Shown here piece by piece: positions 8,002 to 18,947 of a stretch of DNA of 40,197 bases (the first letter of the stretch is position 1; each line of letters opens with the position of its first letter). The translations under genes were made by a program, and so were the position numbers. The stretch comes from Myxococcales bacterium (GTDB lineage Bacteria; Myxococcota_A; UBA9042): NCBI GenBank assembly GCA_037441385.1, contig JBBISH010000054.1, positions 1 through 40,197 of the forward strand, read 5' to 3'. The notes beneath the pieces were generated by a model. The model searched no databases, was not told the origin of the DNA, and was given only the letters and a program-made list of their open reading frames with translations.

Positions 8002-9654
8002 CTACGGGGTGATGACGATCTTGGTCTTGGTGGGATTGAAGGCGTTGTCCAGCTCGCCGTCGACCACGCGCATCGGATCGCCACCCCAGCTGTAACCATA
8101 GGGGATTTCAGCCGACTTCAGCAGCTCCTTGTAGCTGTGCTGCTTGCCGTCCAACAGGGTGCCGATGAACTTGCCCAGCGCGCCGCCCGAGCCGGTGGTC
8201 CAGGTCTCCATGCCGTTGGTGATGAGCTCCAGGTTGGCGGTGCCGCCCTTCTTGAGCGGGAAGTAGTCTTTCTCGTAGTAGTTGTACGACACGCAGCTGT
8301 CGATGAAGAACAGCTGGTAGCTGGTGGGGAAGTCCGCGGCCGTGAAGTTGCTGGGATCCAGCGGGCCGTAGCCGATGTAGCTGTGGCCGTTGTAGATGAA
8401 GACGTCGCTGTTCTTGATGGCGCGCTTGTGCGGGCCCGAGCCGCCGCCCGAGCCAAAGTAGCTCTCGATGGCGACGGTGACCTTGGAGGCCGCCGCGCTG
8501 CCGATCTTGACAGAGACGGGCAGCTCGAACGTCATCCAATTGGCCAGGATCTTGTCGCCCACGGCGGTGCGGAGCTGCTTCTTTTGGTCGGTGGTGGTGA
8601 TGCCGGCCGGCCAGCCGCTGCCGTCCAGCTCCCACTTCATCAGGTCCTCGAACTTGGCGCCGCTGACCTTGACGCTGCCGATGGTGTAGCTGCCAAAGTC
8701 GACGCCGTTTTCGTTCTTGGCCAGGACCCAACCGGGGCGCGCCTTGTAGACCTCGCGCATCATCTTGAACCACTCGGTGTAGCCCTCGTCGTCGATGGTG
8801 CTGGGCTTGGGGCCATTGCCTTCCCATTCGGCCAGCAGGCCGCCCACCACGCCGATGGTCAGGCGCCCCTTCTTGATGCCGCCGGTCCACAGCTTGTCGT
8901 ACTCGGGGTACGAATTGTTGGCATTGGTCTTGTTGCCCACCAGCGCGACCGTGATCGGCAGGTACAGGCGGGCCGTTTCGCTGAGCGGCACCTGGGTCTT
9001 GGGGTCCTTGAGCTTGGCGCGGTCGGCGTCGATGGCCTTTTGCTCCTTGGCGATCGCTGCCTTGCACCCGCTAAGCGACGGGTTGAACACGTACCAGATC
9101 GACGACTGGAAGTCCTGCGCTTCCTTGTCGTTGTCGGTGCATTCCAACAGGATCTTCTGGGTTTGCGCGTTGTAGTTGCCGCTCAGCAGCGCCAGCGACA
9201 GGCTGGACCGCGTGGCAAAGGACTTGGGCACCACCGCCGTGTCCTTGTAGGTGTATTCTACGCGCAGCATCTTCTTGGGCGCCGCGGTGGGTTGCGCGGC
9301 GTCGATCGCGTCGACCGGCGTCTTGACGAACAGCTTGGGGTCGGCCACGCCCAGTTCGCGCTGGTTGGGCATGATGGTGGCCGTGCGCAAAGCACCAAAG
9401 CCCGACTGAGTCTGCTTCTTGATGGCGGCCGCGATCGTCGAAGCGCTGGCCGTGGCATCGACGAAAACCACGCCCTTGAAGGTCATGTCGCGGGCCAGAG
9501 CCGTGTTGCTGGTCAAGTCGTCCGCGGACTCGCCCACGTCGCCGGGCTCAGTGGCGCAGCCGCCCAGCAGGGCCGCAGTGCACAGGCTGGCGAGCAGGCC
9601 GGCCGTGGCGGCGCCGCGCGGTGGGTTGACTGAGTAGTTCTGGACTTGACGCAT
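8002..9654 (-). CDS. Lipoprotein of unknown function with C-terminal clan-CD-like (caspase/gingipain-type) His-Cys motifs
   Basis: GGGAGGA RBS; lipobox LGGC; strong GC3 codon bias; VFIYNGHS and LFFIDSC strands. Confidence 0.8.
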   Translation of the reverse strand: MRQVQNYSVNPPRGAATAGLLASLCTAALLGGCATEPGDVGESADDLTSNTALARDMTFKGVVFVDATASASTIAAAIKKQTQSGFGALRTATIMPNQRELGVADPKLFVKTPVDAIDAAQPTAAPKKMLRVEYTYKDTAVVPKSFATRSSLSLALLSGNYNAQTQKILLECTDNDKEAQDFQSSIWYVFNPSLSGCKAAIAKEQKAIDADRAKLKDPKTQVPLSETARLYLPITVALVGNKTNANNSYPEYDKLWTGGIKKGRLTIGVVGGLLAEWEGNGPKPSTIDDEGYTEWFKMMREVYKARPGWVLAKNENGVDFGSYTIGSVKVSGAKFEDLMKWELDGSGWPAGITTTDQKKQLRTAVGDKILANWMTFELPVSVKIGSAAASKVTVAIESYFGSGGGSGPHKRAIKNSDVFIYNGHSYIGYGPLDPSNFTAADFPTSYQLFFIDSCVSYNYYEKDYFPLKKGGTANLELITNGMETWTTGSGGALGKFIGTLLDGKQHSYKELLKSAEIPYGYSWGGDPMRVVDGELDNAFNPTKTKIVITP

Positions 9655-10565: not shown

Positions 10566-11792
10566 TCAAAACAGATACTTGACGGTGGCGCTGAGGCTCC
10601 ACGACCGGGTGCCCACGCCGTCGCTGTCCACGTCGTTCTGGGTGGCCGCGCCGCCAAGTATGCGGAAGTGCTCGGCGAACTTGTAGTTGGCTTTCAAGCC
10701 AAACGAGGTGTAGTGCCCCAGATCGCCATAGTAATGCGAATACCCCACGTTGGCCGACAGGCGCACCGGCCCCAACTTGTGGCTGACCCCGGCGGTGCTG
10801 CTCCAGTCAAAGGGGGCGACCGCGACGCCTGTGCCAAAGCTGGCCGAACTGCCGTTCACGGTCTCGCCATTGGGGGCCTTCTTGCCCTGGGTGGCCAGGC
10901 TGAAGTAGCCGACCTCGTTGGGATCCTTGTTGTAGAGGTAGTAGGTGGCGCCCAGTGACACATCGGTGTTGCGAAACAGCGTCTCGATGAGCGTGAGCGA
11001 GATCGGTACCACGGCCAGGGTCGCCTCCTGAGCCTTTAGCAGTGGATTCAACCGCTTGCATAGCTTGGCCGTCTTGGCGGTGGTGCCGCCACTGCAAATG
11101 TCCATCAGCTGTTGGGTTGTGGTCAGCTTGCCGTTGCGGCCGATGAACTCTTCAACGCTTTGCTTGGTGGTGACCGCGTTGAGGCCGGCCGAGAGCGTGA
11201 CCTCGCTCTCGTAGCTTGAGGTTCCACCGGTTTCCCAGCCCGACCAAAGGGTTACACCCGCCGACGACGAGGCCACCTGCAACAACGTGGGCGCGTCGTA
11301 GGTCGAGGTCTTGCCGGCCACGGTGTCTTCCATGACCAAGGTGGTCGCCGTGCGCGAGGTGCTTTTGGGCGAAAAGCTGAGATTGCTGCCAAAGCTCCAG
11401 TGATAGGGCACGTCTTCTTCCTCCGTCTCGCCGTCTTCGTCCACAGTGACGGTCGTTTCGCCGGCGCCGGGGATCCAGGTCGCGCCCACGCTCAAGTAGT
11501 GGATGGCTCGCTGAACCTCTTTGGTATAGAGCGGGTTGTCTTTGTCCGCGGCGCCGCGCGGCAAGCTCAGGTTCCAGCCGCCGTCCAAGCTCCAGCGGTC
11601 GTTCGGGTCCCAAAGTCCGCTTAGGCCTGCCGACGTGCTGCCGCTGGCCGGACTGCTGTCGGTGGTCGGCGTGCGCGACACGCCGCCGGACAAGCCCACG
11701 CTGGCACTCCAGGCTGTGGTCGGCGCCAAGGCCGTCCAACAGGCTGCGAGCATCCCGACTACGATGCGCCAGTTCTTCGCCTTTTGCCCCAC
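10566..11792 (-). CDS. Predicted outer-membrane beta-barrel protein
   Basis: Sec signal (..TAWSA), alternating amphipathic Gly/Ser/aromatic strands, C-terminal ATVKYLF (terminal Phe). Confidence 0.7.
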   Translation of the reverse strand: MGQKAKNWRIVVGMLAACWTALAPTTAWSASVGLSGGVSRTPTTDSSPASGSTSAGLSGLWDPNDRWSLDGGWNLSLPRGAADKDNPLYTKEVQRAIHYLSVGATWIPGAGETTVTVDEDGETEEEDVPYHWSFGSNLSFSPKSTSRTATTLVMEDTVAGKTSTYDAPTLLQVASSSAGVTLWSGWETGGTSSYESEVTLSAGLNAVTTKQSVEEFIGRNGKLTTTQQLMDICSGGTTAKTAKLCKRLNPLLKAQEATLAVVPISLTLIETLFRNTDVSLGATYYLYNKDPNEVGYFSLATQGKKAPNGETVNGSSASFGTGVAVAPFDWSSTAGVSHKLGPVRLSANVGYSHYYGDLGHYTSFGLKANYKFAEHFRILGGAATQNDVDSDGVGTRSWSLSATVKYLF

Positions 11793-12027: not shown

Positions 12028-14964
12028 ATGCCAAGCCGCCCGCGGCAGACCAGTTGGGCCTCGCCCGCGCCGCGAGGGGCCGGGTCGGTCCTCTTCGCAA
12101 TGGCGCTGTTCGCGACCGCCTGCGGCAGCGACCCCGGCGAGTCCTGTGATCCTGCATCGAGCCGCGGCAAAGCCGAGGTCCAGGCGACGGCCGCCGTGCC
12201 CTGCCCCGTCGACCCCACTTTGCACACCGCCCGCTGCATGGCCAGCGAGGCATCGCTGCTGCAGTGGGCCAGCGGCGCCAAGGGTGCGTGGCCGGCCAGC
12301 AAGTTCGTGATCGGCCGCTTCTTTCAGGCCAGTGGCCCAGCCTGGTTCATGGACCCGGCCTTCTACGCGATGCACGACGAGTGGTACTGGTTCCGCTTGC
12401 TCAGTGGCTACTCCGTCGATGGCGACTGCGCCGTGCCCAAAACCGGCCTGCACTTTCCAGACTTGCCCGCTGCCTACGCCTGGGCCAAGGAGCAGAAGGT
12501 TCCGCCCTACGACCTGGAGTGGTACGAAACACGTTTGTACTCCAGGCGGTTCTACGACCTGGCCAGCTTTTGCTGGACGGCAAAGTGCCCGCCGCGCACC
12601 TTTGGTGTAGGCACGATCTTCCACTTGCCGGCCGATCCCAAGCGCCCGTATCCCCAGGCCCTTTGGGCGTTTGACCTGGAATACCCCGACAATGCCGACA
12701 AGGCCGTCTTGCAGCAGTACTTCCTGCGACTGCAGAAGCTGCTGCCGGCGCAAGTATTTGATCAGCTTCACTGGGTTGCGGCCACCTCGACTCAGCAGAT
12801 CGCGCTGGCCAAGGCGTTGCGGACGGAGGGCGGGCCGTTGGCCGAGCGCGTGTTGACTTGGCCAGACCTGGTCGCGCCGGCCGCGGTCGAAGGCTACACC
12901 TCGGGCATCACGGCGGGCCGCGTCCGCAAACTCGGTGTCGGGCAAGCCGAAGCCGCAGAGCTGGCGCCGACCGATCTGGTGGTCTTGCCCGATGTGCCGC
13001 TGTCGCTGCCGCCGGTCGCCGGTATTCTGACGGCGGTCCCGCAAACACCGCAGGCGCACTTGAATTTGCTATCGGCGGCGCGGGGCACGCCCAACGCATT
13101 CGTTGCCGGGATCCTGGACGACAAGGTCATGGATCTGTGGAGCAAAGAGGGTGCGCGGGTGGTCTTGGAGGTCAAGCCCGATCGCGTACGCTACCAGCAG
13201 ATGGAAGACAGCCAGTGGGTCGAGTGGCTGGCTTTGAACCAGCCTCCGGTGGTCGCGCTGGCGATGGCCAACCTGGACGGAGCGCCCTATTTCCTGCCGC
13301 TCACTGGCGGAAGTGTTGTACTGTCGCGGGCTTGGCTACCCCTGGTCGGCGGCAAGGCGATGGGGCTGATGGCGCTGGCGTCGCTGCCGGGAGTGGAGAC
13401 GCCGCCGCAAGTGTCGGTGATCACGGTCGCTGGCTATGCCGCGCACCTGGCGCCGTTGCGGCCGCTCATCGAAGCCATGTTGGACGACCAAGACTTCAAG
13501 GCCAGCAAGCTGGCCCGCGAGCTCATGCTCGAAGGGCCGACGGCCTTTGCAAGCAAGTACGCGGGCGATACCGACGCCCAGAATTTCTGGAAGGCGTGGA
13601 GCCACGCCACGCACAGCGCAGCGGCGGAAATGCTGGTGGCCGCGGGTGGTTTGCAGACGTTGATTCGCCAGCAGCCGTTGGACCCAGCGTGGTGGAATGG
13701 GGTGGAAGCCCAGCTGAAACAACACTTTGGTCGCCTTGGCCACCAGCAGGCGCTGCGCTTTCGCTCGTCGAGCACGGCCGAGGACATCGACGGCTTTAAC
13801 GGCGCGGGGGTCTACATCTCGACCACGGGTTTTCTGTACCCGGCGGAACAACCCAAGAAAAGCGATCAGGCCTTGAGCGCGCAGAAAGCGGTGACCAATG
13901 TCTATGCCTCGTACTGGGGCTCGCAGGCCGTAGAAGAGCGCATCCTGGCGGGAATCGACCACTTGGAGGGCCGGATGGCGGTAGCAGTCCACCCGCGCTT
14001 CGACAACGAGGTCGAATCGGCCAACGGCGTGGCCATTTTGGCGGTGGTGCGCAGTTCGCAGGGCGATCGCTTCGAGTTCACCGTCAACGCACAACCGGAC
14101 TCGATCAGCGTCACCAACCCGCCCCAGGGGGTCAAGGCACAGCCCGAAATCGATCGGATCAGCCAAGTCGGCACCGGCCTGCCGCAGTTGGTGCGCCTGC
14201 AGCTGGCCGCGACCGAGACGACTGGGCCAGACGGCCTGGTGCTGAGCGACAAAGAACTTATGAATATGTTTGCGCAAGTCGCACCGCTAGCCAGTCAGTG
14301 GATCGACGCAAAGAATGCACCACTTGGGGCCGAAGAGCGCGCGCACAGCGTCCAGCTCGACTTTGAATTCCGCCGAGTGGCAGCGGGTTGGCCGATCCAG
14401 GCCGACGGCGCAACCTTGCGGCCACGGCTGGTGTGGAAGCAAGTGCGTTCGCTTGAGCATGTGGGCGGGGTGCGCGCCGAGCACTTGGACGGGGCCCAGG
14501 TGCCGCGCGACGTGCTGCACGCCGCCATCCGCGCAGTGCGGAAGACCTGCACGACCCCGGCCTTCACCGCCACGCTGACCGAATTGCAGACGAGCGCCTC
14601 GGGGCCCACCTCGGTGGGGGTGCCGCTGACGGACTACTCGGTGCGGCCGTTCACGGCACGGATGCAGCTGCAAATTCACCAGTTCGTGGGCGGACTCATG
14701 CCCGGCATGAAGCTCGACCTGAGCCATGTCGCGGCCTTGTTCAACCACCCAGGTACCACCGCCAAGCACTGGGACCTGCGCGCCGACGTCACTCCCGCCA
14801 CGGCCAAGCAGTGGACCTGGAAGAACCTGACCGTGGACGAGAGCGGCGCGTGGTCCATCGCGGCCGGCGTGAGCCAGTTGCAGGGCAAGGGCGCCGTGTG
14901 CACCACCCAGCTGCTGGCGGCCGGCAAAGAGGCTTTCCTGTCGGAAATCTTGGGCGAACTCTAG
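12028..14964 (+). CDS. Putative lipoprotein with phosphohistidine swivel domain and PPDK/PEP-synthase N-terminal ATP-grasp domain (dikinase-like)
   Basis: Signal/lipobox-like LFAMALFATAC; swivel AGILTAVPQTPQAHLNLLSAARGTPN; ATP-grasp LVGGKAMGL, FRSSSTAED..GAGVYIS, VYASYW, SANGVA, DFEF. Start could be 11953, 12028 or 12100. Confidence 0.8.
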   Translation: MPSRPRQTSWASPAPRGAGSVLFAMALFATACGSDPGESCDPASSRGKAEVQATAAVPCPVDPTLHTARCMASEASLLQWASGAKGAWPASKFVIGRFFQASGPAWFMDPAFYAMHDEWYWFRLLSGYSVDGDCAVPKTGLHFPDLPAAYAWAKEQKVPPYDLEWYETRLYSRRFYDLASFCWTAKCPPRTFGVGTIFHLPADPKRPYPQALWAFDLEYPDNADKAVLQQYFLRLQKLLPAQVFDQLHWVAATSTQQIALAKALRTEGGPLAERVLTWPDLVAPAAVEGYTSGITAGRVRKLGVGQAEAAELAPTDLVVLPDVPLSLPPVAGILTAVPQTPQAHLNLLSAARGTPNAFVAGILDDKVMDLWSKEGARVVLEVKPDRVRYQQMEDSQWVEWLALNQPPVVALAMANLDGAPYFLPLTGGSVVLSRAWLPLVGGKAMGLMALASLPGVETPPQVSVITVAGYAAHLAPLRPLIEAMLDDQDFKASKLARELMLEGPTAFASKYAGDTDAQNFWKAWSHATHSAAAEMLVAAGGLQTLIRQQPLDPAWWNGVEAQLKQHFGRLGHQQALRFRSSSTAEDIDGFNGAGVYISTTGFLYPAEQPKKSDQALSAQKAVTNVYASYWGSQAVEERILAGIDHLEGRMAVAVHPRFDNEVESANGVAILAVVRSSQGDRFEFTVNAQPDSISVTNPPQGVKAQPEIDRISQVGTGLPQLVRLQLAATETTGPDGLVLSDKELMNMFAQVAPLASQWIDAKNAPLGAEERAHSVQLDFEFRRVAAGWPIQADGATLRPRLVWKQVRSLEHVGGVRAEHLDGAQVPRDVLHAAIRAVRKTCTTPAFTATLTELQTSASGPTSVGVPLTDYSVRPFTARMQLQIHQFVGGLMPGMKLDLSHVAALFNHPGTTAKHWDLRADVTPATAKQWTWKNLTVDESGAWSIAAGVSQLQGKGAVCTTQLLAAGKEAFLSEILGEL

Positions 14965-15000: not shown

Positions 15001-15216
15001 CGCTCTGCCGGTCGCGTCTCCAGCCCCATGTGGGGCGCAAGTGAGCGCCTGCGGCGACTCGCCGCGCCAAGTTCGATGGTGCGGATGTGCGGAGAAAGTC
15101 CAAATTGATCCGCCCTCTAGGAGCCTGTCGGCAAAATGGGCGACGCGACATGTCCATTTAGTTATACATTGTGATCTGATTGGGTGCCGCCAGTCTCCTA
15201 GCCTTCTTCGTTTGTC

Positions 15217-15266
15217 CAACTGGCCGAAAATCGCCCGAAGTGAATTCGTGCGATTTCAGCCAGTTG
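15217..15266. repeat. Long imperfect inverted repeat (stem-loop)
   Basis: CAACTGGC/GCCAGTTG, AAATCGC/GCGATTT and CGAA/TTCG stems nested around a GTGAA loop. Confidence 0.6.
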
Positions 15267-15319
15267 CCGCCGCGCAAGACGCGGCGCTAGGATTGTGCCG
15301 GGATTATCCCGACACGCTC

Positions 15320-17104
15320 CTAGGCCTGGGCGACTTCGCCGACCACCAAGAACGCCGCCACCTTGCCCTTGCCCTTGACGTCGATCTCGCCGCGCGGTTC
15401 GGCGTGATACTGGCCGCCCAGCGCCCGTAGCGTCGCCGCGGTCACCTGCACACGCCCCGGCACGCCATGCGACTCCATGCGGCTGGCCAGGTTCACCGTG
15501 TCGCCCCACAAGTCGTAGATGAACTTGCGCTGGCCGATCACGCCCGCCACCACCGGTCCGGTGTTGATGCCGATGCGCAGCTGCAGCGGTTGCCCAGTCG
15601 GCGTCCGGGTTTGCGCGGCCACTTGCGCCATGGCGAGCCCCATCTTGACCACCGCCTGCGCGTGGTCGTGGCGCAACTCGGGCAGCCCGCCCGCCACCAT
15701 GTAGGCGTCGCCGATGGTCTTGATCTTTTCGAGCCCCAGGCCTTCGGCCAAGCGATCGAACTGTGAAAACAGATCGTTCAAGAACTCGACCAATTCGCCG
15801 GGCGGAAGCGCCTCGGACAGCGGGGTAAAGCCCGCCACGTCGGCAAAAAGCACGGTCACCGACTCGAACCCGTCGGCAATCGAGTGGTGCTCTTCGCGCA
15901 GCCGGTCGGCAATCGACCGCGGCAGCACGTTGAGCAGCAGGCGCTCGGCCTTGTCGTGCGCTAGGGCCAGCGCCGCCGACTTGGCCCGCAGCTCTTCGGT
16001 CTTGCGCTCTACCTCCAGCTCCAAGTTGTGGCGCAGGTAGTCGCGCTCGCGGTACGTGGCGATGATGCTCTCGTTGACCGCGATCGCGGTGAACAACAGT
16101 GAACCCACCACGCCCACTGGCAAAAGCATCGGCGCAGCGGTCATACCGGTCACGGCGAACATGTCGCTGGTCCCAGCCAGGGCAAACACGCCAAAGCCCA
16201 GCGCCTGCCCCAAGGGGGCCAACTTGCGCTCGGCCGTGGGGACGCGCCGCGCCACCCGCACAAACGCAATGGCCAAGAGCGCCAACGTGAAGGCAAACGG
16301 CAAGGTCGTGCCCAGTTGGATGACGTCGCCGGTGCTGCCAGTCAACACCAGCAGCAGCGCGGGCATTACCCACGCGATGTACGCCAGCAAAAGGCGCCGG
16401 CCGATGACCTGCTGCTCGTGCAGGCAAATCGCGGTAAAGATGAAGCCGAGCCAGACTCCGCTGTCGGCGATGCGGTGCGCCGTCCGCATGGGCAGGTCGA
16501 TGCCAAAGGCGCCAGCCGTGCCAAACACAAAATAGACGGACATCGCTAGGTTGGCCAAAGTCAGCGATAGCCAGAGCCGCCGCGGCACCTTGCCGGCGAA
16601 AATGAGGCCAGTCAGGAGCGCCATCAGCAGCAAGGCCCCGCCGGCGACGCTGGGCACCGTCTCGCCCCAAAATGCGTCGTGTGGGGGCTCGTCGACCAAT
16701 TGCGGGGCAAACGCCAACCGCGCAAAATAGCGGGTCGGCGAGTGGACCAACCAACGCAACTCGTGCACACGCGCCACGTCGCCGCAGGGCAGCGCCACCC
16801 CGCCAAAGAACGAATGGGTCGACTGCAGCGTGAGATCGCCCGATCGCAGCAATAAGTGGCCGTCGCCAAAGACCTCTTGGGCGCCATGGACGACCCAGGG
16901 CAGCCGCAACCAGGCGGTGGGGCGGGCCCGACACTGCGCCGGGAGCTCGCGCGACGTAGCGTCGAGGACCCAATGCTCGCCTTGCGGGTCAAAGGCTTGC
17001 GCCACCTGCCAAGCCGTTCCAAGCTGAGGACGCGGGTCGCTGGCCACACCCAGCAAGGCAGACAGCCCCATCAAGATGGCCACGGCATGGGCGGCAATCG
17101 ACAT
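15320..17104 (-). CDS. Membrane-bound class III adenylate cyclase with extracytoplasmic sensor and multi-TM (7TMR-DISM-like) region
   Basis: LLLNVLP, VLFADVAGFT, KIKTIGDAY, RIGINTG, KFIYDLWGDTVNLASRMES (Lys/Asp pair typical of ATP specificity). About 7 hydrophobic helices. ATG 17104 is preceded by AGGA. Confidence 0.9.
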   Translation of the reverse strand: MSIAAHAVAILMGLSALLGVASDPRPQLGTAWQVAQAFDPQGEHWVLDATSRELPAQCRARPTAWLRLPWVVHGAQEVFGDGHLLLRSGDLTLQSTHSFFGGVALPCGDVARVHELRWLVHSPTRYFARLAFAPQLVDEPPHDAFWGETVPSVAGGALLLMALLTGLIFAGKVPRRLWLSLTLANLAMSVYFVFGTAGAFGIDLPMRTAHRIADSGVWLGFIFTAICLHEQQVIGRRLLLAYIAWVMPALLLVLTGSTGDVIQLGTTLPFAFTLALLAIAFVRVARRVPTAERKLAPLGQALGFGVFALAGTSDMFAVTGMTAAPMLLPVGVVGSLLFTAIAVNESIIATYRERDYLRHNLELEVERKTEELRAKSAALALAHDKAERLLLNVLPRSIADRLREEHHSIADGFESVTVLFADVAGFTPLSEALPPGELVEFLNDLFSQFDRLAEGLGLEKIKTIGDAYMVAGGLPELRHDHAQAVVKMGLAMAQVAAQTRTPTGQPLQLRIGINTGPVVAGVIGQRKFIYDLWGDTVNLASRMESHGVPGRVQVTAATLRALGGQYHAEPRGEIDVKGKGKVAAFLVVGEVAQA

Positions 17105-17375
17105 GGTCCGTTCCTGCGGCGCAGCGCGGCGACGAGTGCACCTAGTTGGGCTTGTACGGCCGCACCTATGGGCGGTCAAGGGGCCACTCCAGCGCCCCAG
17201 GCGTCGAACTACAGGCCGATCGCGGAGGTAAGCGTGACATATCCTACGATTTATCCATGGATTTCCTGACACACAACCGGGTAACAAGGCGCGGCGGCGC
17301 CGTGACGGAGGCTTGACGCTGCTGCCCCGCCATCGCACGCTGCCAAGGCGGGCCCAGCGGCCGCGCCGAGTCCAA

Positions 17376-18947
17376 ATGGTCCTTGCCAAGCCAGTCCATC
17401 GCCTGCCGCCGCGCCAAATGGCCTGGCTGCTCGTGGCCCTGGCGGCTTGGCTGGCGTTTGCGCCCAGCTTGCGCGCCGGCTGGTTGTGGGACGACCACTT
17501 CTTCTTTGACCCGCTGGCACCAGCCCTGAACTCGCCCACGCATCTGGCCGCCGTGTTTGGCAGCGACTTGTTCGGCGCGTCGACGCTCGGCCAAAAACAG
17601 CACACTTATCGTCCGCTTACGGTGTATGCCTGGACGTGGGTGATCGCCCTGACCGGAGGCAAGGCCTGGGCGCTCCATGCGTGGTCGCTGCTGCTTCACA
17701 GTGCCGTCAGTGTGCTGGTGGTCGAGTTCGCCTTGGGACTGGGCGCGCCCCTGGCGGGCGCCACGCTGGCGGGCCTGGCATTCGCCGCGTCGACTGCGCA
17801 AACCGAGGCTGCGGTGTGGATTTCTGCGGTGCACGGTGTGGCCGAGGCCGGCTTTGTGCTGGGAGCCGCCCTGGCCACGTTGCGGCTTGCTGGCTGGCAG
17901 CGCGCGGCGGGGGCGGCGGCCTGTGCGACGGGCGCGCTACTGTGCAAAGAGTCTGGGCTTTTGGCGGTGCTGGCGAGCCTGGCCATGCTGACGGCGCGCT
18001 GGCAGCCACGGGGCGGGCAGGACAAGCCCTTCCGCCGCGATCTGCTGACGTGGTCGGCGGCGCACGGGGCGGTGGTCGTCGCGTATCTGGCGTGGCGGAG
18101 CGCGCTGGACTTGCCGGTCGGCCGTCCGCCCTTTGCCATCGACGGGGTCTTGAGCTTGGGCGGGGCGCTGGGGCGGTCGTTGCTGCTGCCGGATTGGCCC
18201 AATGTGTGCCGGCCATTGGTGTCGCCCGCCGATGCCGGGCCGGGGTTGGCGATCTGGCTGGCAGCCACCTTGCTGGTGGTGTGGCGCACGCCGCAGCGGC
18301 GCAATGTGCTGGCAGCGCTTGGGGTCGCGCTGGCCACGTTGCTGCTGCTTGGCCCCATCGCGGCGCAGACCGCGATCGCTTCGGACCGCTACTTGTACTT
18401 GCCGCAGGCGCTGTGGTGGGCCGCGGCGGCCACGGTGGTGCCGGTCTGGTCGTGGGACACCGCAAGTCGCCGCGGACAAGCGCTGGGGCTCGCCGCGGGC
18501 GCTTGGCTGCTGCTGCGCGGCAGTCTGGCTTGGCTGTCAGTCGCCGATCTGGCCAGCGATGTGCCGGCCTTTGCCCATGCGGTCGCCGAGCACCCGGCGG
18601 ATGGCGAAGCGCATTATCACTTGGGGGTGGCCCTGTTGCGCGACCACCGCGTCCCGGCGGCAGTGGCGGCGCTGCGTCGGGGTCTGGAGCTGCGACCGGC
18701 CGACCCGCGGCTGTGGTCCAATCTCACGGGCGCATTGGTCAACGAGCACCGCGATCGCGAGGCGGTGGAGTTGGTCGCGGCCTTCGACGCTCAGCAAGTC
18801 CCATCGGCCAAGGCGGCCTACAATTTGGCGCTGGCCGCGTCGCGCCTGGGGGAGTCGGCCTTGACCCAAAGGTTGGCCGAGCGGGCGCTTGCCTTGGATC
18901 CGAGCTACGCCAAGGCCCGGGCTCTACTGGGCAAACCGCCGCAGTGA
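17376..18947 (+). CDS. TMTC-like GT-C glycosyltransferase (putative protein O-mannosyltransferase) with C-terminal TPRs
   Basis: WLWDD acidic pair after TM1, YRPL, LLH, CKES, DRYLYLP; many TM helices; TPRs AHYHLG..ALRRGLELRP and AAYNLA..ALALDPSY. Start uncertain (17313, 17376 or 17418). Confidence 0.75.
   Translation: MVLAKPVHRLPPRQMAWLLVALAAWLAFAPSLRAGWLWDDHFFFDPLAPALNSPTHLAAVFGSDLFGASTLGQKQHTYRPLTVYAWTWVIALTGGKAWALHAWSLLLHSAVSVLVVEFALGLGAPLAGATLAGLAFAASTAQTEAAVWISAVHGVAEAGFVLGAALATLRLAGWQRAAGAAACATGALLCKESGLLAVLASLAMLTARWQPRGGQDKPFRRDLLTWSAAHGAVVVAYLAWRSALDLPVGRPPFAIDGVLSLGGALGRSLLLPDWPNVCRPLVSPADAGPGLAIWLAATLLVVWRTPQRRNVLAALGVALATLLLLGPIAAQTAIASDRYLYLPQALWWAAAATVVPVWSWDTASRRGQALGLAAGAWLLLRGSLAWLSVADLASDVPAFAHAVAEHPADGEAHYHLGVALLRDHRVPAAVAALRRGLELRPADPRLWSNLTGALVNEHRDREAVELVAAFDAQQVPSAKAAYNLALAASRLGESALTQRLAERALALDPSYAKARALLGKPPQ

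Follow-up and report, generated by a model that had tools for sequence, protein, structure and literature searches.

Several described kinases pass a phosphoryl group through a swivelling histidine domain. Rifampin phosphotransferase (RPH) has the domain order ATP-grasp, acceptor, His, and in phosphoenolpyruvate (PEP) synthase and pyruvate phosphate dikinase (PPDK) the ATP-grasp also precedes the His domain, whereas the glucan-water dikinase type (GWD1/PWD) runs from an acceptor domain through a His domain to a C-terminal ATP-binding domain, according to PMC13553574. Another kinase, the PEP synthase/PPDK-like TalE (about 79 kDa with its tag), phosphorylates a dipeptide amine with ATP in phosphoramidon/talopeptin biosynthesis, as described in PMC6482885. 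Phosphorylation beyond the inner membrane has no obvious energy source. Here we analyse a gene (P0001) for a dikinase with a predicted lipoprotein signal, at positions 12028 to 14964 of the forward strand of contig JBBISH010000054.1 from a Myxococcales bacterium (assembly GCA_037441385.1); the whole stretch that we analysed, 40,197 nucleotides (nt), is called the window below. A preliminary description made from the letters alone had read the gene as an exported dikinase acting on a surface substrate.

We tentatively propose that the protein is a polyphosphate-driven extracytoplasmic dikinase that passes the phosphoryl group via His344 to an acceptor which is likely a small molecule or peptide. 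The family is large and, by the searches made, uncharacterised; in the literature searched, with most subscription papers outside our reach, neither an exported member nor a dikinase of this type that uses polyphosphate turned out to be described. If the proposal is true, it would add a new route to phosphorylate envelope targets, with polyphosphate as the energy supply line, would account for the CotH kinases outside the cell and assign a function to the bacterial VTC/DUF4956 genes, and on a practical matter a polyphosphate-driven ATP-grasp dikinase would be useful as a biocatalyst.

A complete dikinase core in a predicted lipoprotein

The reading frame is open from 11953 or 12028 to 14964 on the forward strand and is a real open reading frame. 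We prefer the start at 12028 because the closest relative, 83% identical, has its Cys at residue 36; from this ATG the gene encodes 978 amino acids (aa) and ends with TAG at 14962-14964. The predicted lipoprotein signal (12028..12123, forward strand) has a lipobox, ATAC, ending in Cys32 with its codon at nt 12121, exactly where the preliminary description had placed it, and residues 1-34 are modelled with low confidence. Signals were called with a regular-expression rule written for this analysis, not with SignalP, and counts refer to 120 listed near relatives (of 236 matches in a set of 7,999 candidates) and to wider representatives, the best 150 of 2,800 profile matches. By this rule the basic n-region, hydrophobic h-region and lipobox Cys are conserved among relatives: a lipobox-like Cys follows a hydrophobic run in 93 of the 120 near relatives, against 0/120 for internal stretches under the same rule, and a lipobox or hydrophobic N-terminus is found in 106/120 near relatives and 124/150 wider representatives, as opposed to 1/120 relatives in a cytoplasmic Streptomyces branch. 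Several of the 14 near relatives without a signal appear to be truncated at the start. Signals of lipobox or cleavable type are kept across phyla, and family members occur as fusions with lamin-tail, RTX, fn3 and carboxypeptidase-regulatory domains, all frequent in extracellular proteins.

Behind the signal come an N-terminal domain, a His swivel domain, an ATP-grasp and a beta-rich tail. The AlphaFold2 model, built on 120 rows, has a mean predicted local distance difference test (pLDDT) of 90.9, and Foldseek ranks RPH, HpeI, PEP synthase and PPDK at the top. At the sequence level the sole Pfam match is PPDK_N (aa 438-670, E 8.8e-12), no Pfam match to a PEP-utilizer domain or pyruvate TIM barrel was found, and phmmer with the single protein against the PDB gave no matches at E 1. 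The motifs pointed out previously are all present: QTPQAHLNLLSAARGTPN, GGKA (441-444), RSSSTAED (579-586) and ASYW (627-630).

The putative phospho-His swivel domain (aa 285-399; 12880..13224, forward strand) resembles the carrier domains of EI, pyruvate kinase and PPDK at Z 7.9-10.5. VIA-align from aa 285 gave Z 10.5 for 2e28, 10.2 for 2wqd and 7.9 for 2fm4, and over aa 285-399 it gave Z 9.1 for 5t12 (root-mean-square deviation, rmsd, 4.4; 102 residues aligned). The catalytic His344 (13057..13059, forward strand), already singled out as the swivel His, stands at the start of a model helix (344-352) and is conserved in 120/120 near relatives and in 83/83 and 149/150 wider members. The family profile weakly aligns it with the His of the GGRTSH loop in the PEP synthase 8a8e; the GG(R/M)TSH loop of PEP synthases reads QTP(L/Q)(S/A)H in this family.

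The ATP-grasp (PPDK_N) domain spans aa 415-810 (13270..14457, forward strand). Its residues K443, R579, S598, E780, Q805 and R807 are, like H344, each present in 120/120 near relatives, completing the Lys, Arg, Thr/Ser, Glu and Gln-x-Arg set of PPDK_N-type ATP-grasps. K443, R579, S598 and E780 align with RPH K22, R117, T136 and E297, whose roles we took from PMC4844700, including its Table 2. The best structural matches of this domain are RPH (5hv1, 5fbs) and small-molecule dikinases including HpeI (9goj), with Z 26.9, rmsd 2.9 and 289 aligned residues against 5hv1; its best sequence match is to PEP synthase (8a8e, 9dae, 2ols)/PPDK, with E 2e-41 between the family profile and 8a8e. The tail of 170 aa after the ATP-grasp, mostly strands in the model as had been suggested, contains a C-terminal beta-rich domain (aa about 822-968; 14491..14931, forward strand) that is confined to this subfamily, family members of 640-700 aa terminating directly after the Q-x-R motif. 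Within the full-length model it weakly matches CghA (6kbc; Z 7.0, rmsd 4.2, 114 aligned).

Judged by sequence, the protein thus has a complete swivel-His dikinase core in a predicted lipoprotein. It resembles RPH- and GWD-type dikinases and belongs to none of PEP synthase, PPDK, RPH and GWD. With RPH it shares the aligned catalytic residues and a three-part architecture in which one domain is reserved for the acceptor, but its His domain is N-terminal and it has basic residues at 577, 782 and 804. The rifampin-binding domain of about 430 aa has no match in the protein, which leaves no room for it between the ATP-grasp and the C-terminus, and the RPH model NF041857 scores 22 bits against a cut-off of 999. 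We know of no export signal in RPH. Compared with PEP synthase and PPDK, the dikinase has His344 before the ATP-grasp, an export signal and no pyruvate barrel, and the NCBIfam PEP-synthase models score 18-22 bits against cut-offs of 598-999. The order that it shares with GWD/PWD, on which the preliminary description had laid weight, is indeed present but is not peculiar to those enzymes, since the large cytoplasmic Streptomyces branch has it too, and GWD-like order does not therefore imply a glucan substrate. Unlike GWD/PWD, the protein is a predicted bacterial lipoprotein whose N-terminal part consists of the signal and one small alpha/beta domain of 220 aa. For PhtL as a relative, we found only a statement of distant similarity (PMC11278893). 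Homologues carry signals, the His does not vary and no standard PEP-synthase assignment with a barrel emerged; in these respects the preliminary description holds.

Basic residues in the putative adenine pocket

We identified four positions in the ATP-grasp domain that distinguish the exported proteins from our comparators, four solved PEP synthase/RPH sequences and 120 cytoplasmic Streptomyces proteins. R577 (13756..13758), two residues before the catalytic Arg, is Arg in 120/120 near relatives and Arg/Lys in 143/150 representatives; the solved sequences have Ala and all 120 cytoplasmic proteins Val. H655 (13990..13992) is His in 107/120 and 133/150 and replaces a Gln found in PEP synthase, RPH and 120/120 cytoplasmic proteins. 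R782 (14371..14373), two residues after the metal-binding Glu, is Lys/Arg in 117/120 and 138/150 (Ala, Gly, Cys or Leu in comparators), and K804 (14437..14439), directly before Gln-x-Arg, is Lys/Arg in 120/120 and 138/150 (Val or Leu in comparators); all four codons are on the forward strand. This four-position basic signature of the exported branch, recognised from sequence comparison, is new in this analysis.

These positions change together: over 145 representatives, 577, 782 and 804 are all basic in 134, none is basic in six, one in five and two in no case, and Gln655 is kept in 10 of the 11 representatives with at most one basic position. As most of these 11 have lipoprotein-like starts, an ATP-type exported subgroup probably exists and, together with the cytoplasmic Streptomyces branch, could serve as a natural control for polyphosphate use. 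Proteins that are exported and have the hydrophobic pocket with Gln include P0181, P0216, P0224, P0236, P0239, P0428, P0442, P0448, P0452, P0460, P0467, P0470, P0477, P0485 and P0499. In a quick tree of 50 rows sampled from 390, made with no PEP synthase, RPH or GWD outgroup and with long branches flagged, three such members formed one clade, the subfamily formed one group and so did the Streptomyces set.

From the model we infer that R577, H655, R782 and K804 line a remodelled adenine pocket; 577/579 and 780/782 lie on common strand faces. We take the GWD stretch E1225-I1227 to lie immediately after position 655 of the dikinase, and I142, E180, M259 and L269 of E. coli Ddl presumably form its adenine pocket, placed in a matching register relative to K144, D257 and E270. 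According to the GWD paper, the purine is held by bonds to the backbone of E1225-I1227, and the four Ddl residues cluster in a docking result in PMC10974262, which shows the clustering alone. In the available parts of PMC5371819 and PMC4844700 we found no residue list for the RPH or PPDK adenine pocket.

Association with VTC, DUF4956, CotH and phosphate porins

The second line of evidence comes from gene content. In a phylum sample of 201 genomes, 108 match the family profile at 1e-30; we counted as carriers the 80 with a best E <= 1e-70, the 28 weaker-matching genomes being counted, unchecked, as non-members. VTC is found in 65/80 carriers versus 31/121 others and DUF4956 in 67/80 versus 32/121, unlike the control family TLC, which shows no genome-level association in this one phylum (35/80 versus 45/121). 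Among Acidimicrobiia, VTC is present in 8/11 dikinase carriers and 9/119 non-carriers. It is also present in 41 of 50 subfamily-carrying genomes, drawn from 50 of our 80 subfamily loci and overlapping the phylum sample by about ten, and in 5/5 more.

The association extends to gene order. Of 150 listed family loci (227 matches in total), 11 lie within 10 kb of DUF4956 where about 0.6 would be expected, and these come from 10 genomes with seven family codes; dikinase, VTC and DUF4956 stand in direct succession at G078:C33, G123:C106 and G171:C34. Clustering of the neighbours at 80 metagenome loci of the wider family gave DUF4956 at 18 loci and VTC, CotH and a phosphate porin at two each, 15 of the 18 DUF4956 loci belonging to a single low-GC lineage in which DUF4956 is convergent and stands alone. 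Operons at L242, L245 and L177 link the dikinase with genes of the set made up of CotH, phosphate porin O/P, DUF4956 and VTC; the order is dikinase, lipoprotein, CotH, porin O/P and CotH at L245, and dikinase, lipoprotein, porin, CotH, DUF4956 and VTC at L242. The set is not adjacent to the dikinase studied here, and its source genome (G000) has a VTC-DUF4956 pair on contig C22 and two CotH genes. At this pair (G000:C22:33983-38019; L198, L201) VTC, DUF4956 and a 772-aa adaptor-like gene stand in a row, and the VTC/DUF4956 sets in the relatives L244, L236 and L246 extend to HlyD and/or TolC-like genes. Bacterial CotH/VTC/DUF4956 sets have been described beside pel loci (10.1101/768473; 10.1101/2024.04.20.589940).

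The N-terminal domain and the wider family

The N-terminal alpha/beta domain (aa 64-283; 12217..12876, forward strand) is, at about 220 aa, somewhat smaller than the 250 aa previously estimated, and its characterisation as an unknown domain stands. Folded alone it reached a pLDDT of 95.3, and against 48,161 chains its model found nothing at Z 5 or above (best Z 3.6), in a library that perhaps lacks the GWD central-domain structure of August 2026. A match to E. coli polyphosphate kinase (Z 3.4) is within noise, and the absence of a structural match does not show that the modelled fold is new. By likeness to RPH, we take this domain to be the probable acceptor domain. Its residues K92, H116, R190 and D221 are retained through all branches: K92 in 118/120, H116 in 119/120 and R/K190 in 116/120 near relatives, the three being present in 120/120 proteins of the Streptomyces branch.

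Where near-relative loci are named they are mainly from Myxococcota, plus Acidimicrobiia. A wider family of 640-760 aa proteins, from a search limited to shorter proteins, has the same N-domain, His and ATP-grasp and comes, where named, from Bacteroidota, Myxococcota and Verrucomicrobiales; the subfamily and shorter-family profiles align over 602 columns with probability 100. Against 1.84 billion representatives the family profile had 2,800 matches at E <= 1e-30, PEP-synthase-like proteins included, and the best 150 all score better than E 1e-178, so that the family comprises at least 150 clusters at 50% identity at that level. The source genome alone encodes three paralogous members, one on each of C54, C9 and C98, and all three show a hydrophobic run and a Cys near the start. 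Among 66 pattern matches in viral contigs, none was a dikinase relative.

Two Streptomyces plasmids encode a protein of 670 aa that has the N-domain, His and ATP-grasp domains but lacks a signal. These operons (L196:9000-15308, NZ_CP109451.1; L197:4733-11305, NZ_CP100444.1) consist of a PAS-LuxR regulator, an ATP-grasp ligase, the cytoplasmic dikinase and a major facilitator superfamily (MFS) transporter. With this query 1,047 proteins matched at E 1e-20 among 8,000 candidates, and the 120 listed share 78% identity or more and all come from Streptomyces where named. The branch is the mark of a biosynthetic cluster that is apparently common in Streptomyces. In composition the operon looks like an unassigned phospho-dipeptide cluster akin to tal, which (PMC6482885) likewise has an ATP-grasp ligase, an MFS transporter and a regulator beside TalE and adds a glycosyltransferase and a MerR regulator that the Streptomyces operon lacks. 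The likeness comes from cluster composition, and none of the fetched family proteins starts like TalE.

Discussion

In the mechanism that we tentatively favour, the lipid-anchored enzyme would work in the envelope and bind the end of a polyphosphate chain, not ATP, in its ATP-grasp site. By analogy with RPH, whose His takes the beta-phosphate, His344 would attack the penultimate phosphate, and the swivel would carry it to an acceptor held by K92, H116 and R190 of the N-domain, while the beta-rich tail may target the enzyme. VTC and DUF4956 would make and export the polymer, by analogy with the yeast VTC complex, which couples polyphosphate synthesis to membrane transit. We suggest polyphosphate rather than ATP as the donor because basic residues occupy what is likely the adenine pocket of an exported protein, and a small acceptor because the same N-domain is found in Streptomyces, where its operons also encode an ATP-grasp ligase and an exporter of the MFS type. 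The scarcity of periplasmic ATP, which had seemed a puzzle, may in that case not matter, given the basic pocket and the link to VTC/DUF4956. The earlier idea of an exported dikinase with a surface substrate holds for export, the intact core and the enzyme's own acceptor domain, and nothing points to a glycan. Somewhat more doubtful is the broader claim that a widespread class of exported kinases has rebuilt the ATP-grasp adenine pocket into a polyphosphate site fed by a VTC/DUF4956 exporter, with an acceptor domain of undescribed fold.

Several observations weigh against polyphosphate as the donor. The pocket assignment is drawn from how the strands register in the model, from one passage of a paper and from the Ddl structure, and each pocket contrast amounts to roughly one event, since the 120 cytoplasmic proteins are all closely related Streptomyces sequences and three of the exported hydrophobic-pocket members form one clade. 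VTC, DUF4956 and CotH are absent from the window, and VTC/DUF4956 flank just one of 80 subfamily loci (L032), plus L243, which was found separately. Stratification by family, over the 19 families whose totals are known, lowers the VTC association to an odds ratio of 2.6, which is not significant (p 0.14); furthermore, 15/80 carriers have no VTC match, and most of the loci checked in these carriers retain the basic pocket. In the literature searched we came across no experimental work on whether bacterial VTC proteins export polyphosphate, and the preprint 10.1101/2024.04.20.589940 suggests that the polymer may stay cytoplasmic.

Somewhat less likely is that the enzyme is exported and yet ATP-driven (ATP + H2O + acceptor -> AMP + Pi + phospho-acceptor), using low envelope ATP or that of lysed prey, with basic residues that tighten binding. 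The residues that bind triphosphate and metal are all kept, an exported subgroup (11/145) retains the hydrophobic pocket and Gln, and low ATP could suffice because the Km of RPH for ATP is 8.4 uM (PMC4844700). The genome also has a nucleotide-transporter-like gene (G000:C162:5240-8455, L085), which encodes a TLC domain with helical repeats in 1072 aa and is unlinked to the dikinase paralogues. However, three invariant Arg/Lys residues and the loss of Gln fit adenine poorly, if the pocket is correctly assigned. No ATP/ADP-transporter-like gene was found at 84 loci plus the window or at 82 wider loci, with PF03219 being an insensitive probe here, and TLC, not associated at the genome level, adjoins the dikinase at 1/150 listed family loci.

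Less probable still is a role in envelope phosphate handling for phosphorus scavenging, either as breakdown or remodelling of polyphosphate with water, phosphate or a polyphosphate end as the acceptor, or as reverse synthesis of nucleotide for the CotH kinases. The operons with phosphate-selective porin O/P, CotH and VTC would fit such a role, as would the conserved Lys, His and Arg of the N-domain, typical of anion binding, and the lack of conserved substrate-pathway neighbours across 80 loci. Against it, the cytoplasmic Streptomyces branch keeps identical N-domain residues in ligase/exporter operons, and making ATP from AMP requires two high-energy bonds.

That the protein is a bacterial glucan dikinase acting on surface or prey polysaccharide, as GWD/PWD act on starch, we consider improbable. 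Besides the shared domain order (PMC13553574), this idea draws on sub-threshold matches to GWD1_pHisD (PF22973) in two of 10 relatives scanned (E 0.12 and 0.25), on an Atlas lead of 0.76 and on the proximity of CotH/VTC/DUF4956 genes to Pel polysaccharide loci (10.1101/768473). The protein itself has no PF22973 match even at E 10 and no carbohydrate-binding module (none at E 0.01, and none in the N-domain at E 5), and its acceptor domain of just 160-220 aa is common to an enzyme of small-molecule-type operons. It is very unlikely that the protein is a dead enzyme, or a common cytoplasmic enzyme of PEP-synthase type whose N-terminus is hydrophobic by chance: databases label relatives as 'PEP/pyruvate-binding domain-containing protein' and some near relatives lack a signal, but signals are conserved across phyla, fusions are of extracellular type, PEP-synthase models score far below their cut-offs and the catalytic residues are invariant.

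Neighbouring genes and other observations

Upstream of the dikinase gene lies a divergent gene of outer-membrane-barrel-like type, and downstream of it a gene for an adenylate/guanylate cyclase, which is convergent. The former (window 10566-11792, reverse strand) encodes an exported, beta-barrel-like protein of 408 aa with a C-terminal Phe and no Pfam or NCBIfam match, and adjoins the dikinase in no relatives other than the closest two (L001, L002). The latter (window 15198-17605, reverse strand) encodes a membrane protein matching Pfam Guanylate_cyc at E 4e-62. Across 80 subfamily loci we found nothing conserved in the neighbourhood beyond close-kin synteny. Further upstream, a 550-aa lipoprotein-like protein (window 8002-9654, reverse strand) has no Pfam or NCBIfam match; its GHS and downstream DSC motifs presumably resemble the His/Cys dyad of clan CD peptidases.

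L006, titled Enterobacteriaceae, matches the dikinase over the same range and with the same identity as the myxococcal L007, and its label is probably wrong. Two giant proteins, P0361 (3227 aa) and P0362 (2025 aa), combine two dikinase modules with Ig/fn3 repeats. Finally, a conserved lipoprotein of about 340 aa with no Pfam match adjoins the 650-aa dikinases at 11/80 metagenome loci, among others at L161, L166, L175, L177, L242 and L245, and also stands beside the C98 paralogue of the source genome (G000:C98:13632-14768); it is a possible partner.

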